Sequence record: PZ452612.1
Length of the DNA stretch: 64,000 bases
Source of the DNA: a phage
Reading direction: 5' to 3' (one strand)
A model generated the notes under the pieces. The model ran no database searches and had not been told where the DNA came from. It saw nothing but the letters and a program-made list of their open reading frames with translations. This document shows positions 4,084 to 43,529 of this stretch, piece by piece. A program made the translations under genes and the position numbers. How positions within the stretch are numbered: position 1 is the stretch's first letter; every line of letters begins with the position of its first letter.

Positions 4084-6795
4084 TCAAAAATCGAACATAT
4101 CGAACAGAGATGCTTTCTTCTCGTAATCGAGTTTCGCTGCTGATGTGAATCCTTCAAGTGGTTTAATAAATGTCTTCTCAAGGAGAACAGTGTAGTCCAT
4201 CCAATGAAGTACGTCATCTTTAATTAAATCTGTGATTTCAGTACCAGAAGGCCATGCGATACATTTATCACCGAACGGGTTTCCTTCACGTAAAGGCAGA
4301 ACATATACTTTTTCACCTTCTACAACTTGTGGAGCATCAATATTACCTTTGATAGCTCTGTTATATGTCAGAATTCCACGAATATGGAACGGACATTTAG
4401 GACCAGGGAATCCACCTACATCATATTTAGCAATGTTATTCGCAGAAGATACCGACGCGATGCTAATATAATTCAATTGACGGAATTCTTTTTCAAACTC
4501 TTTAAAATATTCTTGTAATGATTCTTCACCTTCTTGAAGCATACGACGAATACATTCTTTAAGAGCTTTCTGTACTGCTTTAGGGGTCGAAGATTTCTGA
4601 GTCTCTAGACCCATGATTTTGAGTTTAGGCTCAGCGTAACGAGTACCTTCCATATCCCACACGTTTAATGCGTAACGTTTCTTACCAGTCCAGAATCCAC
4701 CAATACCTTTAGAACCGAGCGGAGGACCAGCGATAGCTTCTCGGTCCATGAACATTAAGTGTTGTTTATTGTTCATGTATTCACACATTTCACGGAAACC
4801 TCTATCAATAGCAGGTTCCATACGTTCACGAGCGAACTTATCTAAGAAGTCTACCCAATGGTTGGTATCACGGAATTTAGATTCACCAACCTTATCGATA
4901 ATTTTATCAGCAGATACGTAAATAGAGTCTGTATCACCATAAAGAACGAAAGCTTCACCTTCTGTACCACAAACTTCGTTCAGATATTCATTAACTTTAC
5001 GTTCAATCCACTGTAAAGCCATTTGACCAAATGTTGTGATTGCAGTAGCATTACGCAAATCGTAATAACGGAACCAAACGTTGCCAAGTGCACCATAAAG
5101 TGAGTTGATAAGCAATTTACGGTTAATTTGTGCAGTCATACCTGCAACTTCAGTACGTTGAGCTCTAAACAACATTTCATTAAGAGATTTAGCAGACAAC
5201 TTTTTAATCTTTTCTTTAATCTCGTCAGTGAAGTCGAAACGATAATCAACATCTAATGGTTCGTCAACAGAAAGATTAGGATTATGCAACGCCTCTTTAA
5301 TTATTTCACCATTACGTTGAGCCGCAAGCATATAACCTTTATGTTCTTTACGTTGATTAAAGACCTTAGTGATTTCAGTTGGAACTACACCATCACGGTC
5401 TTTATAATACATCATGCCATTAGGAGAACAACTGTACACATCTGAAGGACGTTCAGCGATTGCGTTAATATAATCATGCAGTGGAGCTACTTTAAACGTT
5501 CCTGCTATTGTTTCCGGGCTAATATTCACTTGGCGAATAATACTTGGATACAGAGATGTAAGGTCGAAACTCATTACATATTTGTATCGATTTGGAATAG
5601 GTTCCTTAACAAAAGCGCCAGGATAAGGTTGAACCGGGTGAGAACGACCTTGTGGAATCACCTTGTTCTGCTCTTTAAGGCTATTAAAAATAATAGCATC
5701 CCATGTTTTAATTGGGCTAAACACAGATTGAATCTGTATCTTAGCATAATAACCCATGTCCAAACTCAAGTTGATGAACTGACGCTTAGCATCAATTTGC
5801 AATACACGATACACGTCGATAATGTTATAAGAAATATATCGTTGGTGATTGCTTTCACGAAGCTTAGAAATAGGGCCGTCATATTTCAGTTTACCAACGT
5901 TCAATTCAAATTCTGAAATGTAATCTAGAGAATACGACGGTTGATTGGTAAAAGAGAATTTTTTGTAAAGGTCGATATAATCAAGAACAGAGATACCGAA
6001 CAATGTAATGATTTCACGAGAACCATACATGTTTTCGATAACTTTAACACGAGTTTTACGATGCGGTGATAAACGTTTCGCAGTAGATTCGCCAAAAATA
6101 TTCTTGATTCGGTTATACACATATGGAATATCAAATGACTCAACGTTCCATCCAGTCAAAATGACAGGAGTTTTCTGTTGCCAGAAGTTGAGATATTCCA
6201 TCAACAATTCTTTTTCGTTATCGAACGGCATATAAATGATTTTATCGATAATTTCAGATGGAACTTCATCACCGCCTTGTTCTTGAAGCTTAGCAGCGAT
6301 TTCAATAGACCATTCTTCTACATTACCATATGGAGAATTCAATAGATCAAATACGTAGAACCTGTCGTCAATTGAGTCATAATGGGTGATAGCATCAATC
6401 GGATGTTTTGCTTGTGATGGCTCAGGGAACCCATCCGGAGATGTTACTTCGATGTCGAAGTTAGCCACACGAATTTTTGTATGGTCGTATTTGATTTCAT
6501 AGTTATAAGTGTCAGACAAATACGCCAATTTGAAATCGTCCATGCCAAGTGCTTCAAGTCCGATATCTTCCATGCGTTTAATCCATTGGGAGGCATCACG
6601 CATATTAGCGAACAACTTACGAGTACACGGCTTACCGTAGATATCGAAATATTTCGTAGCCTGACTTTCCGGACAATGAGCAAACAGTGATGGTTTATAT
6701 TCTACTTCACGAGTACGTTCACGGCCATTAGAATCGATGTAACGTTCAAAAATTGAATCACCAATCTGTTCAACCGTTAAGTAAAATTCTTTCAT
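4084..6795 (-). CDS. 43: DNA polymerase (family B), gp43
   Basis: 903 aa, MKEFYLTVEQIGDSIFERYIDSNGRERTREVEYKPSLFAHCPESQ... Contains exo motifs (FDIEV, YNIIDVYRV) and pol motifs (DTDS, KKRYA). Matches the RB69 gp43 sequence as recalled. Confidence 0.97.
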   Translation of the reverse strand: MKEFYLTVEQIGDSIFERYIDSNGRERTREVEYKPSLFAHCPESQATKYFDIYGKPCTRKLFANMRDASQWIKRMEDIGLEALGMDDFKLAYLSDTYNYEIKYDHTKIRVANFDIEVTSPDGFPEPSQAKHPIDAITHYDSIDDRFYVFDLLNSPYGNVEEWSIEIAAKLQEQGGDEVPSEIIDKIIYMPFDNEKELLMEYLNFWQQKTPVILTGWNVESFDIPYVYNRIKNIFGESTAKRLSPHRKTRVKVIENMYGSREIITLFGISVLDYIDLYKKFSFTNQPSYSLDYISEFELNVGKLKYDGPISKLRESNHQRYISYNIIDVYRVLQIDAKRQFINLSLDMGYYAKIQIQSVFSPIKTWDAIIFNSLKEQNKVIPQGRSHPVQPYPGAFVKEPIPNRYKYVMSFDLTSLYPSIIRQVNISPETIAGTFKVAPLHDYINAIAERPSDVYSCSPNGMMYYKDRDGVVPTEITKVFNQRKEHKGYMLAAQRNGEIIKEALHNPNLSVDEPLDVDYRFDFTDEIKEKIKKLSAKSLNEMLFRAQRTEVAGMTAQINRKLLINSLYGALGNVWFRYYDLRNATAITTFGQMALQWIERKVNEYLNEVCGTEGEAFVLYGDTDSIYVSADKIIDKVGESKFRDTNHWVDFLDKFARERMEPAIDRGFREMCEYMNNKQHLMFMDREAIAGPPLGSKGIGGFWTGKKRYALNVWDMEGTRYAEPKLKIMGLETQKSSTPKAVQKALKECIRRMLQEGEESLQEYFKEFEKEFRQLNYISIASVSSANNIAKYDVGGFPGPKCPFHIRGILTYNRAIKGNIDAPQVVEGEKVYVLPLREGNPFGDKCIAWPSGTEITDLIKDDVLHWMDYTVLLEKTFIKPLEGFTSAAKLDYEKKASLFDMFDF

Positions 6796-6807
6796 TTAAT
6801 TTCCTTT

Positions 6808-6823
6808 AGACGAGTTATTGTCT
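6808..6823 (-). promoter_or_regulatory. Putative gp43 translational operator hairpin (stem AGAC/GUCU, 8-nt loop AAUAACUC) just 5' of the gene 43 Shine-Dalgarno
   Basis: mRNA reads AGACAAUAACUCGUCU AAAGGAAAUUAA AUG. The loop sequence and position match the T4-type gp43 autoregulatory operator architecture. Confidence 0.5.
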
Positions 6824-6853
6824 TTTGTTTGTTGATGAACTTATTATACTCCA

Positions 6854-6873
6854 AATGGGACCGAAGTCCCATT
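6854..6873 (-). other. Stable hairpin (AUGGGAC-UUCG-GUCCCAU) immediately after the regA stop, followed by GGAGUAUAAU
   Basis: Perfect 7-bp inverted repeat with a UUCG tetraloop seen in sequence; no long U-tract follows. Confidence 0.4.
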
Positions 6874-6876
6874 GCT

Positions 6877-7245
6877 TTAATTACCAATTGTATATTTTGC
6901 TTTCAAAGTCCAGTCATCTTTCTGTTTAAAAGAGATAACACGGAAGTTATTAGTCAGGCCAAACAGATCTTCACGAGCAGAGTCTTCAATAACAATCAAT
7001 CCCCAGTCTTCAAGCAACTGAGCAATCGAATCACGTCGCTGATAGTCTTCACCATCAATATCAACCTGACGTCCGTCCATACGCAGCATTTCTTTAAAGT
7101 GGACGATGTAATATTTACCTTGCTTTTGGAGGATATGACAAGACTGGTAAAGGACTTTATCCTTGTTATTAGCGATGCCCATACGGGTTAGAGTCTCTTT
7201 GACTTTCAGAAAATCTTCAGGGTTCTTCAATTTAATTTCAATCAT
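6877..7245 (-). CDS. regA: Translational repressor RegA
   Basis: MIEIKLKNPEDFLKVKETLTRMGIANNKDKVLYQSCHILQK... matches T4 RegA as recalled; syntenic between 62 and 43. Start taken at the internal Met. Confidence 0.85.
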   Translation of the reverse strand: MIEIKLKNPEDFLKVKETLTRMGIANNKDKVLYQSCHILQKQGKYYIVHFKEMLRMDGRQVDIDGEDYQRRDSIAQLLEDWGLIVIEDSAREDLFGLTNNFRVISFKQKDDWTLKAKYTIGN

Positions 7246-7247
7246 TT

Positions 7248-7811
7248 TTACCATTCCAATGCTAATTTTTTAAATTGTTTTTGTTCTTTTACGTTTTTAG
7301 TAACTTCTTTGAGAAATTCATCAGTGACCATGGCCTTCAGTTCTTTAAGGACTATTGGCAGCTTGTTATTTTTTTCAAGGAGCCGCTTATACTCGGTAGC
7401 ATCATTCATGTTGATTGTGTAATGTTTCATCAACAGTTTGATAACTAGTAACTCTGAAGTGTCTTCGACTAGTTTAGCCCATTTAGAGAATCGACGACCA
7501 CGCGGAATTGCCGCCATCATATAGTTGAAGTGCGCTTCATCACTTAATTCAGAACCGACTAAGTTCATCATGTAAACGGCTGGCATACATTCTGGAAACT
7601 GGGATAACGAGTTCTCAACCATAAATTTTGAGTAGTCGACCTGAGCAATTGACATAGATTTCTTTTCATTAATAGCATTAATGATTTTAAAGAATTCATT
7701 CTCAGGTTTTTCTTTAAACATATCAGCACATTTTTGAATCGCATCAGCGTCATTAGACTTCCATGCAATTTGGTGCTCGTTAAGCTGGACGTCATCATCG
7801 AATAAGTTCAT
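7248..7811 (-). CDS. 62: Clamp loader small subunit gp62
   Basis: 187 aa, same length as T4 gp62; position between 44 and regA. Confidence 0.8.
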
Positions 7812-18416: not shown

Positions 18417-18887
18417 TTAATCATGTTTCCACACCCCATTGGTATTCGACCAAAGTCGCTGATTATCTGATCCTCGCCACAGTTTTTTGGTCGGAAGATT
18501 TTTCTCATACTTCCCATCAATAATAACATCAACATATTTAAGCATTTCTAGTTGTTTAATATCTTCAAACTTATATCCTGTCCACAACCAAATGCTTTTA
18601 TTGGGATAAATATTTTTTACTGTTTGAACAATGCAATGAACAACATCTCTATTATCAGGATAGAGAGGGTCGCCTCCGGTTATAGTCAATCCTTCTATAT
18701 AATCATTATTCAAACATTCAATTAATTGTTCTAGTGTCTCTCCAGTGAATGGAGCACCATTTCTAGCGTTCCATGTTGATTTATTATAACACCCTTCACA
18801 TTTATGCAAACAACCTGTAACGAAAAGAACGACCCTGCAACCAGGGCCATTCACAAAATCGCAAGGATAAAATCTATCATAATTCAT
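18417..18887 (-). CDS. nrdG: Anaerobic ribonucleotide reductase activating protein NrdG (radical SAM)
   Basis: CLHKCEGCYN is a CX3CX2C radical-SAM motif; 156 aa; immediately downstream of nrdD. Confidence 0.9.
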   Translation of the reverse strand: MNYDRFYPCDFVNGPGCRVVLFVTGCLHKCEGCYNKSTWNARNGAPFTGETLEQLIECLNNDYIEGLTITGGDPLYPDNRDVVHCIVQTVKNIYPNKSIWLWTGYKFEDIKQLEMLKYVDVIIDGKYEKNLPTKKLWRGSDNQRLWSNTNGVWKHD

Positions 18888-20701
18888 TGGTGTTTAACCC
18901 TATGCATGATTTCTTTATTTTTACCGAGATTAAATCCGCGTTCGTTCGGATTTCCCAAATAACCGCATGTTCTTCTTATGGTGTTCATCTTTTTAGGATC
19001 AGTTTCTCCGCAAACTGAACAAACAAATCCGTTTTCAGTAGGAGTCATTTCATGGGTACTTCCACATGTAAAACATTTATCTACTGGCATATTAACACCA
19101 AAATAATCTAAATGTTGTGCAGCATAATCCCAGACAGCCTCAAGTCCCTTTAAATTGTTTTTCATATCTGGAAGTTCAACATAAGAAATGTGACCACCTG
19201 TCGCAATGAAATGATATGGCGCTTCACGAGAAATCTTTTCAAACGGAGTAATATTTTCTTCTACTGAAACATGGAAACTATTAGTGTACCAGCCTTTATC
19301 TGTAACATCTTTTACACTTCCATATTTTTCTGTGTCTAGTTTACAGAAACGATAACAAAGGTTTTCAGCAGGTGTAGAATACAAGCTAAAAGCAAACCCA
19401 GTTCTTTCAGTCCATTGTTTAAGAAGAGCATTCATTTTAGTTAAAATTTCTTGTCCAATATCACGTCCGACAAGAATATTCAATTCGTGGATACCAATGT
19501 ATCCTAAAGACACTGAACTTCTACCGTTTTTAAATAACTCAATTATGTCGTCATCAGGTTTAAGACGAACCCCGAATGCACCTTCTTGGTAAAGAATAGG
19601 AGCAACAGTCGCTTTAACTCCTTTTAAGGAACTAATTCTACACATCAAGGCTTCAAAACACAGATCCATACGTTCATTGAATAATTCAACAAATTTCTGT
19701 TCATTGAACTGTGTTCCAATATAAGAATCTAATGCGATACGAGGAAGATTCAGTGTTACAACACCGAGATTATTACGTCCATCAAGAATTTCATTACCAG
19801 TCGAATCTTTCCATACGCTCAAGAAACTACGGCAACCCATTGGAGAAACTGGAACTGAAGAACCAGTAATAGCTTTATTATTCTTAGCTGAAATAATATC
19901 AGGATACATTCTTTTGCTTGCGCACTCTAGAGCAAGCTGCTTAATATCATAGTTCGGATCGTCTTTATAAAGATTAACACCTTCTTCAACGAACATAACA
20001 AGCTTAGGGAAAATAGGAGTTATTCCATCACGACCAAGACCTTTAATGCGGTTTTTAAGAATTGCCTTCTGAATCATTCGTTCAGTCCAATCGGCCCCCG
20101 TACCAAATGTAATTGTTACAAAAGGCGTTTGTCCGTTTGAACTAAAGAGAGTATTTACTTCATATTCATAAGCTTGGAACGCGTCATAGACATCTTTTTC
20201 TGTTTTGGATTGAGCATAATTCAACGCATCAGCGATTTGCCATTTTTCCGCATCTTCAACATGTTTAGCGTATGTGCGTTTAACATAAGGAGAAAGAACT
20301 TTATCGACATTTGCAAATGTAGTTCCGCCATACTGATGTGAAGCAACTTGTGCAGTAATTTGTGCCATAATTGCAGTAGCAACACCAATCGATTTAGGCG
20401 TTTCAATTTGAGCATTGCCTAATTTAAATCCGTTCTCAAGCATCCCCTTTAAATCGACTAAACAACAATTAGTAAACGGAAGAGCAGGAGAATAATCAAT
20501 ATCATGCATGTGGATAATTCCACTTTCATGCGCATTCATAATAAAAGACGGGACCATATTTTTGGCAATGTGCTTAGACACAATACCAGCCATAAGGTCC
20601 CGTTGAGTTGGAAAAACACGAGAATCTTTATTAGCATTCTCGTTTAAAAGGTCTTTATTAGTTTTATGAATTAATCCTTCAATTTCTTTTTCAATTTTCA
20701 T
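18884..20701 (-). CDS. nrdD: Anaerobic ribonucleoside-triphosphate reductase NrdD
   Basis: 605 aa; C-terminal glycyl-radical motif RRTCGYLG and a C-terminal Cys cluster. Confidence 0.95.
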   Translation of the reverse strand: MKIEKEIEGLIHKTNKDLLNENANKDSRVFPTQRDLMAGIVSKHIAKNMVPSFIMNAHESGIIHMHDIDYSPALPFTNCCLVDLKGMLENGFKLGNAQIETPKSIGVATAIMAQITAQVASHQYGGTTFANVDKVLSPYVKRTYAKHVEDAEKWQIADALNYAQSKTEKDVYDAFQAYEYEVNTLFSSNGQTPFVTITFGTGADWTERMIQKAILKNRIKGLGRDGITPIFPKLVMFVEEGVNLYKDDPNYDIKQLALECASKRMYPDIISAKNNKAITGSSVPVSPMGCRSFLSVWKDSTGNEILDGRNNLGVVTLNLPRIALDSYIGTQFNEQKFVELFNERMDLCFEALMCRISSLKGVKATVAPILYQEGAFGVRLKPDDDIIELFKNGRSSVSLGYIGIHELNILVGRDIGQEILTKMNALLKQWTERTGFAFSLYSTPAENLCYRFCKLDTEKYGSVKDVTDKGWYTNSFHVSVEENITPFEKISREAPYHFIATGGHISYVELPDMKNNLKGLEAVWDYAAQHLDYFGVNMPVDKCFTCGSTHEMTPTENGFVCSVCGETDPKKMNTIRRTCGYLGNPNERGFNLGKNKEIMHRVKHQ

Positions 20702-29918: not shown

Positions 29919-30388
29919 TTAGCCTTATATTCAAGAGTAGGACAGACTTTTTCTTTACGAGCTTTAAGGTATTCGCCTATTAATGATTTCTTACGTTCAA
30001 TAGGCTCAAGTCCATTTTTAATTCGTTCTTGGTTTTGCGCAATGAGCTCAATTTCTTTATAATATTTTCTGTCGTTATATTTGTCTAACAACCAAGACGG
30101 ACCAATTACCAACCCGGTAGCAATAAAAGCCATGACTGCTACAATTAAAATGCCTACACCAATTGAGGCTGGAACTAATGTCCATAGACTGCTAAAAACA
30201 AAGAATTTAGTTAAAATTTCCTGGCCAATGATTGTGACTGCTGCTAAAATCGCAAATCCAATAATTGAAACAGCCAATACCGGGATTAACGTTTTCCAAA
30301 AATAAGCACACAACGTTTTCGGACGATTCCATGTACTATTGAACGCGGCATAAATTTTAAAGTGCCAAGAGTTTTCATTGATAATCAT
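29915..30388 (-). CDS. Integral membrane protein
   Basis: 157 aa with at least three hydrophobic helices. Confidence 0.45.
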   Translation of the reverse strand: MIINENSWHFKIYAAFNSTWNRPKTLCAYFWKTLIPVLAVSIIGFAILAAVTIIGQEILTKFFVFSSLWTLVPASIGVGILIVAVMAFIATGLVIGPSWLLDKYNDRKYYKEIELIAQNQERIKNGLEPIERKKSLIGEYLKARKEKVCPTLEYKAK

Positions 30389-42741: not shown

Positions 42742-43476
42742 TTACCTTAAGATTGTTTCAATTTTAGAATAAAGCTCTTCTAAAGAGCCGTCGTTTGTAA
42801 TAACTAAATCGCCTTCTTCAATAGGCAACCCAGCTTCTGTAATATGTTTATCAGTGGATTCCGTACCAGAGCGAACCACATGAATAACTGTAGCACCCAT
42901 CGCTCTAGCGGTTTCCATTTCATGGACTTGGCGTGTATCGGTTACAACATAGTAATCGAAATCACTTCCAATATAATCCATATAGTTTAATGCAAAAAGT
43001 TTAACCCAATACATACGGTCAAATAAATTAACGACAACATCCGTACCGAGGGCTTGCATAAGACGGCGGATTGACCATGTGTCGTTGATATTATTTATAG
43101 CTTCACGCAGGGCTTCATACGGTTTAATATCTAGATATGAATACCCACCTTCTAAGGATGATAATACTTTAACATTATTAATTGGTAAATATTGACTTTG
43201 TAAATAAATTAGCGCTTCTTCCAATAATTCAATAACATCCAACTTATTGAGATTTAATGGTGTTTCACGGTCATATCCGACACCTTCAAAGTATTCGTAT
43301 TTCAACTCTGTGAATACATTAGGGTTTTCGGCATGTTTACGTCCCCAGGCTATTGCTAGAGCGTCTTTAATCGGATATGCCAATTGGTATTTTACGGATT
43401 TAAAGTTTGAATTGATGTAATCAGCAGTGGTGTCTTTACCACTACGTTTGACGCCACTTAAAAAGATTAGCTCCAT
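42742..43476 (-). CDS. 1: Deoxynucleoside monophosphate kinase gp1
   Basis: MELIFLSGVKRSGKDTTADYI P-loop N-terminus as in T4 gp1; 244 aa. Confidence 0.9.
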   Translation of the reverse strand: MELIFLSGVKRSGKDTTADYINSNFKSVKYQLAYPIKDALAIAWGRKHAENPNVFTELKYEYFEGVGYDRETPLNLNKLDVIELLEEALIYLQSQYLPINNVKVLSSLEGGYSYLDIKPYEALREAINNINDTWSIRRLMQALGTDVVVNLFDRMYWVKLFALNYMDYIGSDFDYYVVTDTRQVHEMETARAMGATVIHVVRSGTESTDKHITEAGLPIEEGDLVITNDGSLEELYSKIETILR

Positions 43477-43529
43477 AGGTTTTCCTCATATAATTTATGA
43501 GTGATTATAACATACGGAGCTAGAAGCGA

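Follow-up and report, generated by a model that had tools for sequence, protein, structure and literature searches.

The DNA polymerase of phage T4, gp43, is an autoregulatory translational repressor, and its operator is composed of a hairpin and a sequence overlapping the ribosome-binding site, according to the passages on gene 43 in a review of post-transcriptional control in T4-related phages (Uzan and Miller 2010, PMC3014915), which cites Pavlov and Karam 1994, Wang et al. 1997, Petrov, Ng and Karam 2002, and Petrov and Karam 2002. The same passages give the hairpin as 18 bases in T4 and 16 bases in RB69 with shared loop nucleotides, name UAAC as the loop core of both, single out its 3' AC as especially relevant, and describe crosslinking of RB69 operator RNA to the palm domain of gp43 (PMC3014915). 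The T4 and RB69 polymerases are both autogenous repressors that bind RNA, each with its own RNA specificity (Borjac-Natour et al. 2004, PMC535899), and the binding of RNA and of DNA is mutually exclusive, as shown for T4 gp43 (PMC535899).

We followed up a hairpin in the DNA of a phage, a stretch of 64,000 nucleotides from sequence record PZ452612.1 (the window). A first-pass annotation made from the letters had read an AGAC/GUCU hairpin at positions 6808-6823, next to the ribosome-binding site of gene 43, and had proposed that it is a gp43 autogenous translational operator in a diverged form. Below, we compare this locus with RB69, T4 and other relatives, examine the evolution of the hairpin, and weigh the proposed repression by gp43 against other explanations.

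The gene 43 leader of an RB69-like phage

The window phage is an RB69-like Mosigvirus. Its gp43 matches the RB69 DNA polymerase structures 1CLQ and 1IG9 and many others in the PDB over the full length of the protein. Compared with RB69 gp43 (AAP75958), 2 of 903 residues differ (99.8% identity), I446 and T523 of the window being V and S in RB69, and 47 of the 2712 nt of gene 43 are different. The two phages have the gene order 44-62-regA-43 in common, their RegA proteins are identical, and the 84 nt of the regA-43 intergenic region are the same as in RB69 base for base. The segment 6600-7300 of the window shows 100% identity to E. coli O157 typing phages 3, 6 and 13, compared with 98.9% to RB69, and its approximately 155 full-length matches are Mosigvirus-type phages without exception. 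The 60 nt that run from GGAG/TATAAT to the ATG recur with 100% identity in 145 of 153 Mosigvirus records. The features of the locus, with the evidence on which each is placed, are as follows.

4084-6795, minus strand: gene 43, encoding the B-family DNA polymerase gp43 of 903 aa, the putative repressor (PDB match over residues 1-903)
6793-6795, minus strand: ATG start codon of gene 43 (open reading frame list; the RB69 gene 43 annotation begins at the homologous base)
6802-6806, minus strand: Shine-Dalgarno sequence of gene 43, AAGGA (sequence)
6808-6823, minus strand: operator hairpin AGAC-AAUAACUC-GUCU (sequence, RB69 identity, covariation and covariance-model score)
6823-6820, 6819-6812 and 6811-6808, minus strand: 5' arm, loop and 3' arm of the hairpin (sequence)
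6843-6848, minus strand: -10 element TATAAT, homologous to that of the T4 middle promoter P43 (conservation and homology to T4 P43)
6854-6873, minus strand: hairpin AAUGGGAC-UUCG-GUCCCAUU with a C(UUCG)G tetraloop (sequence; context and not part of the operator)
6877-7254, minus strand: regA, with its stop codon at 6879-6877 (open reading frame list and RB69 annotation)

Because the regA-43 intergenic region is identical to that of RB69 and gp43 differs at 2 of 903 residues, the hairpin is, on its sequence, the published RB69 gene 43 translational operator, and as such was already known. Direct reading of the sequence confirms the coordinates and the AGAC/GUCU hairpin of the first-pass annotation, and adds the strand, minus, which had been left unstated. 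The stem had been described as only 4 bp long, which is right, and the 16-base RB69 hairpin likewise consists of a 4-bp stem and an 8-nt loop. The loop had been equated with that of the T4 operator, and comparison with T4 bears this out: the 8-nt loop AAUAACUC at 6819-6812, with its UAAC core, is the loop of both T4 and RB69. What does not stand is the description of the element as a diverged form, since it is, base for base, the RB69 version that has been published and studied experimentally.

The hairpin at 6823-6808 lies in the gene 43 leader and is contiguous with the ribosome-binding site. A single A (6807) separates its 3' end from the Shine-Dalgarno sequence AAGGA, the AGGA core (6805-6802) begins 2 nt past the hairpin, and AAUUAA and the ATG follow. 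The sequence AAGGAA upstream of gene 43 is common to T4, RB69 and other genera. The predicted minimum-free-energy fold contains the hairpin, at -2.2 kcal/mol for the 16-mer alone and -3.2 kcal/mol in context. In place of the outermost pair of the 5-bp versions seen in other phages, the window has A opposite A, hence the 4-bp, 16-base form of RB69.

By homology to T4 P43, the hairpin would lie inside the transcribed leader of gene 43. The start site of the T4 middle promoter P43 is base 29933 (Hinton review, PMC2988021, Table 1), which in the T4 record AF158101.6 follows TATAAT by 5 nt and precedes the ATG of gene 43 (29893) by 40 nt; the T4 reference record AF158101 carries no promoter or operator features. 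Transferred to the window, this spacing would place the transcript start at about 6838-6836, with a leader of about 41-43 nt and the hairpin beginning at about +13. The stretch GGAGTATAAT (6843-6852, minus strand) is conserved across genera, from Tequatrovirus to Karamvirus and Jiaodavirus. The TATAAT at 6848-6843 was not called by a sigma-70 promoter scan, which found no -35 match, and a missing -35 match fits a MotA-type middle promoter; we identified no convincing MotA box for the P43 homologue in the window.

Several other elements surround this promoter. A GGAG at 6852-6849 (minus strand), just upstream of the -10 element, has the sequence of the RegB cleavage motif as given in the relevant part of the Uzan and Miller review (PMC3014915), and might be a processing site in read-through transcripts. 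The hairpin at 6873-6854 lies immediately past the end of regA, right after its stop codon, and a U-rich UUUGG comes next. T4 (GGGGCUUCGGCCCC) and many genera have this hairpin with compensatory substitutions, and a scan for terminator-like elements lists the 6854-6873 inverted repeat on the other strand. This hairpin may be a terminator, a stabiliser of the 3' end of the 45-44-62-regA mRNA, or an upstream part of the P43 promoter. On the plus strand, at 6871-6896, ATTGCTTTA, a perfect MotA-box-like sequence, is followed by an 11-nt spacer and TATATT. A promoter at this place would read into the 3' end of regA in the antisense direction, and the same arrangement is present in T4; conservation at 6871-6896 is uninformative because the segment overlaps the conserved C-terminal codons and stop of regA.

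Conservation and covariation of the operator hairpin

Leaders were collected independently of the operator by anchoring on the N-terminus of gp43. The collection comprised 22 GenBank phages, found by tblastn with the gp43 N-terminus and by blastn matches, and 77 IMG/VR loci, found by a search using an alignment of gp43 N-termini; this alignment-built query was used instead of a single-protein query, which gave only 5 loci. A MAFFT alignment of whole leaders left the T4 and RB69 hairpins out of register, and a loop-anchored alignment was used. In this collection, a hairpin with the loop AAU[A/C/U]ACU[C/U/G] directly 5' of the Shine-Dalgarno sequence occurs in 19 distinct versions, including the following.

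Window, RB69 and Serratia phage 4S: stem AGAC/GUCU, loop AAUAACUC
T4, T2 and RB14: stem AGCCU/GGGCU, loop AAUAACUC
Dhakavirus: stem AGAC/GUCU, loop AAUCACUC
Gaprivervirus: stem AGUC/GACU, loop AAUCACUC
Karamvirus: stem AGACC/GGUCU, loop AAUCACUC
Jiaodavirus: stem AGACU/GGUCU, loop AAUAACUC
Pectobacterium PM2: stem AGGC/GUCU, loop AAUAACUC
Proteus PM2 (Bragavirus): stem AUUCU/GGAAU, loop AAUCACUC
IMG/VR contigs: stems AGUCC/GGACU and GGUCU/GGACC, loop AAUCACUC
IMG/VR contigs L075 and L081: stems AGCCU/GGGCU and AGAC/GUCU, loop AAUUACUC

At loop position 4, Tequatrovirus, Mosigvirus and Jiaodavirus have A; Dhakavirus, Gaprivervirus, Karamvirus and Bragavirus have C; and two IMG/VR contigs have U. 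The first-pass annotation had named loss of the loop in related phages as a result that would speak against an operator; we find the loop kept across many genera, on a stem that covaries. Among the 19 versions, 88.4% of the stem cells form a standard pair, and in four of the five pairs both partners vary. None of 500 shuffled alignments, whose mean is 0.274, reaches the observed covariation score of 0.851, and controls in which the 3' partners were slid by 1-3 columns score at most 0.233. This covariation identifies the stem as a real helix whose pairing has been kept in evolution. To our knowledge, this is the first count of stem covariation for the gene 43 operator.

A covariance model was built from the related phages (19 rows, one of which is the window's own hairpin). 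In the window, the operator site is its top match (31.9 bits, E of about 9e-6), and the next-best site scores 22 bits. Across the gp43-anchored loci, the model matches 38 of 77, on the coding strand only and 4-50 nt 5' of the start codon (locus positions 351-397, the start codon lying at about 401), and it finds no match at E<=1 elsewhere in the 93 kb of these loci. As gp43-anchored sequences fed the model, the informative part of this result is the absence of matches elsewhere.

In this sample, all lineages with the model-detected hairpin share at least 59% identity with the window over the gp43 N-terminus. The covariance model finds no hairpin in Slopekvirus, in Krischvirus, or in relatives from Acinetobacter, Aeromonas, Vibrio and cyanophages, and Erwinia phage Cronus and Serratia phages PS2 and Muldoon, which belong to closer lineages, are also without a match. 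The comparative data map the T4-like lineages that carry the operator, some lineages at or above 59% identity lacking it. That the hairpin is missing from some lineages fits a remark in the part of the review that deals with gp43, according to which autoregulation is absent from some of the T4-related polymerases (Uzan and Miller 2010, PMC3014915).

The element was also compared with curated RNA families. A scan of window positions 6000-7600 against Rfam 15 at E<=10 returned only sub-threshold chance matches (snoRNA, CRISPR repeat and similar), with no match of any kind on the hairpin and no family at its gathering score. The gene 43 operator therefore seems to be without a curated Rfam model, and our 19-sequence alignment and covariance model could seed such a family.

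Proposed autogenous repression by gp43 and alternative explanations

Our preferred reading, to which we assign a probability of about 0.93, is that the hairpin is the gene 43 translational operator of an RB69-type phage, through which gp43 would exert autogenous feedback by blocking the ribosome-binding site. The gp43 autogenous operator proposed by the first-pass annotation is in this respect supported, both by the RB69 literature and by a leader identical to that of RB69. Binding and repression by gp43 have been published for RB69 with the identical RNA (Borjac-Natour et al. 2004, PMC535899; and, in its passages on RB69, Uzan and Miller 2010, PMC3014915). By analogy, both would be expected in the window phage, whose leader is identical and whose gp43 shares 901 of 903 residues with that of RB69.

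The mechanism we propose, as the best supported, is steric competition. The gene 43 mRNA would come from the P43-like promoter about 40 nt upstream of the gene and from read-through from regA. When gp43 is in excess over primer-template DNA, it would bind the loop sequence-specifically, together with the adjoining 3' single-stranded segment. Bound gp43 would then cover the ribosome-binding site and keep the 30S subunit off, an exclusion that we predict because the hairpin ends 2 nt before the AGGA, and translation of gene 43 would fall. Polymerase engaged on primer-template DNA would be unavailable for repression, such that gp43 synthesis would track demand. Because the stem is weak (-2.2 kcal/mol), the fold suggests that the hairpin structure is stabilised by the bound protein, and it may be stable perhaps only when bound.

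We considered three other explanations for the hairpin and rate each at a few per cent at most, because none of them explains a base-conserved loop on a covarying stem. In one, the leader is mainly a target of RegA, which binds A/U-rich unstructured sequence at ribosome-binding sites, and the hairpin is incidental. The leader between the hairpin and the ATG is indeed A/U-rich (AAAGGAAAUUAAAUG), and the RB69 RegA sequences obtained by in vitro selection are, in the review's account of them, similar to AAUAAUAAUAA and do not require an AUG (Uzan and Miller 2010, PMC3014915). However, RegA sites are described in the same account as lacking secondary structure (PMC3014915), which leaves both the covarying stem and the base-conserved loop unexplained, and the hairpin does not have the features of a RegA operator, which is unstructured, A/U-rich and without a conserved helix. 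The passages on gene 43 moreover put this gene under specific autocontrol by gp43, apart from RegA (PMC3014915), and any action of RegA on the 3' segment could add to that of gp43 rather than replace it. We consider it very improbable that RegA recognition accounts for the element.

Still less credit is due to the idea that the hairpin arose by chance and has no function, its match to the T4 loop being a coincidence or a matter of mere shared ancestry. Hairpins with a 4-bp Watson-Crick stem and an 8-nt loop number 368 per strand in the window. The 8-mer AATAACTC occurs 8 times against 3.7 expected, a count reached by 3 of 100 shuffles. The fold energy is also ordinary: 12 of 200 shuffles of the 16-mer are as stable as its -2.2 kcal/mol, and the 66-nt leader has a fold z-score of -0.22 against shuffles. 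Taken singly, shape, motif and energy do not exceed chance; their combination and position do. Only 2 of the 8 AATAACTC copies are flanked by at least 4 pairs, and only the operator copy sits in a 5' leader. Against a chance origin, the loop is kept and the stem compensates across genera whose gp43 N-termini are about 59-77% identical to that of the window, the covariance-model matches fall only at this position relative to gene 43, and binding and repression have been published for the identical RB69 sequence, as described in the passages on RB69 in PMC3014915. The covariation effectively refutes the chance explanation.

An mRNA stability or processing element, which would shield the transcript from attack by RNase E or RegB, or guide that attack, without being a protein operator, has in its favor the position of the hairpin about 13 nt from the predicted 5' end and the RegB-type GGAG motif at 6852-6849 just upstream of the -10 element, but we discount it as strongly as a chance origin, for a -2.2 kcal/mol hairpin with an 8-nt loop protects poorly, a base-conserved loop is not needed for such a role, and the GGAG lies upstream of the predicted P43 start and outside the hairpin.

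Two other sites in the window resemble the operator, and we rejected both. The site that scores 22 bits with the covariance model, at 43491-43514 (minus strand), reads UUAU-AAUCACUC-AUAA, a resemblance to the Dhakavirus type, and lies 5' of gene 1 (dNMP kinase, 42742-43476). We regard it as a look-alike: its apparent loop overlaps the -10 element TTATAAT of the gene 1 middle promoter, the AAU of the loop being the end of TTATAAT, and T4T, HY03 and a Jiaodavirus do not share the remainder of the motif. In T4, the region upstream of gene 1 has a clear MotA box and then TTATAAT. The second site, the AATAACTC copy at 20017-20024 (minus strand), has five flanking pairs, two of them G-U. It is most likely a chance occurrence, deep inside a 605-aa open reading frame (18884-20701) and far from any start codon.

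Candidate operator variants in other phages and comparison with known systems

The element in the window is itself nothing new, a textbook regulatory RNA. Some of the phages in which the covariance model finds no match have other hairpins at the place of the gene 43 operator. Serratia phage PS2 (KJ025957; L057:360-375) has GUCC-AGCAACCU-GGAC, which ViennaRNA folds as a 6-bp stem with a CAAC tetraloop. Serratia phage Muldoon (MN095771; L069:360-376) has GUCCG-AGCAACC-UGGAC; on the DNA similarity of the locus alone, Muldoon has close relatives in Cronobacter phage vB_Cdu_VP8 and Serratia phage SP1. Erwinia phage Cronus (MH059636; L043:366-377) has AGCC-ACAC-GGCU, a T4-like stem with a tetraloop. 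At the same position, an IMG/VR contig (L040:363-381) has UGUCC-UAAUAACUC-GGACA with a 9-nt loop, and in Krischvirus ECD7 (L015) a hairpin CUUUC-GUAAGU-GAAGG overlaps the Shine-Dalgarno sequence. The hairpins of PS2, Muldoon and Cronus sit between a TATAAT and the Shine-Dalgarno sequence of gene 43.

The T4 gene 43 operator RNA is said to have been used by Tuerk and Gold in 1990 in the first SELEX experiment. We take AGCAACCU, the loop of the PS2 hairpin, to be that of the 'major variant' from that work. Two published descriptions of the variant agree with this assignment, one counting four changes among its eight loop nucleotides (Gold 2015, PMC4661202) and the other, in the review's lines on SELEX, giving its core as CAAC (Uzan and Miller, PMC3014915). 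In those lines, Uzan and Miller in 2010 also wondered whether the SELEX major variant exists in nature (PMC3014915), and natural CAAC-type loops bear on this open remark. If the PS2 and Muldoon hairpins are working operators, nature and the first SELEX experiment would have reached the same two solutions. A full-text literature search for AAUAACUC and AGCAACCU brought up nothing but unrelated papers on siRNA or miRNA; it gave no paper containing both AGCAACCU and 'T4 DNA polymerase', and no report of a natural variant was found. We raise, tentatively, the possibility that operators of this family are far more widespread and diverse than the three published cases (T4, RB69 and RB49) suggest.

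Among described systems, the RB69 gene 43 operator is the closest to the window, with the same hairpin, Shine-Dalgarno sequence and spacing and an RNA without any difference; the window phage is nevertheless a different Mosigvirus isolate. The T4 gene 43 operator belongs to the same gene, has the same position in the leader and carries the same 8-nt loop AAUAACUC, and both T4 and the window have the P43 -10 element and the upstream CUUCGG hairpin. The T4 stem differs in having 5 bp (AGCCU/GGGCU, with a closing U-G pair) compared with 4 bp in the window (AGAC/GUCU), and its predicted energy in context is -6.3 kcal/mol compared with -3.2 kcal/mol. The hairpin is 9 nt from the AGGA in T4 and 2 nt in the window, and the end of the loop is 23 nt and 16 nt from the ATG, respectively. 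RB69 gp43 reportedly represses both operators and T4 gp43 its own only, a result attributed to Wang and colleagues in 1997. The review, where it compares the two hairpins, calls the 'top 10 bases' of T4 and RB69 identical (Uzan and Miller 2010, PMC3014915), whereas we count matches at 9 of these 10, the 5' closing base being U in T4 and C in RB69.

The logic of the proposed feedback is shared with the gene 32 operator of T4 and RB69, at which a replication protein in excess over its DNA ligand likewise represses its own mRNA through the 5' leader (PMC3014915, PMC535899). The gene 32 operator, in the review's treatment of it, combines a pseudoknot with an unstructured A/U-rich tract, which gp32 covers cooperatively (PMC3014915); unlike it, the gene 43 operator is a simple hairpin, with no pseudoknot, recognised through its loop sequence. 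RegA is likewise a phage-encoded protein in competition with the ribosome, in its case at the ribosome-binding sites of early and middle genes for replication that belong to the same gene cluster. It acts on many mRNAs at unstructured A/U-rich sites, as the review's passages on RegA have it (PMC3014915), whereas the element in the window is structured, specific to gene 43 and, on our reading, autogenous.
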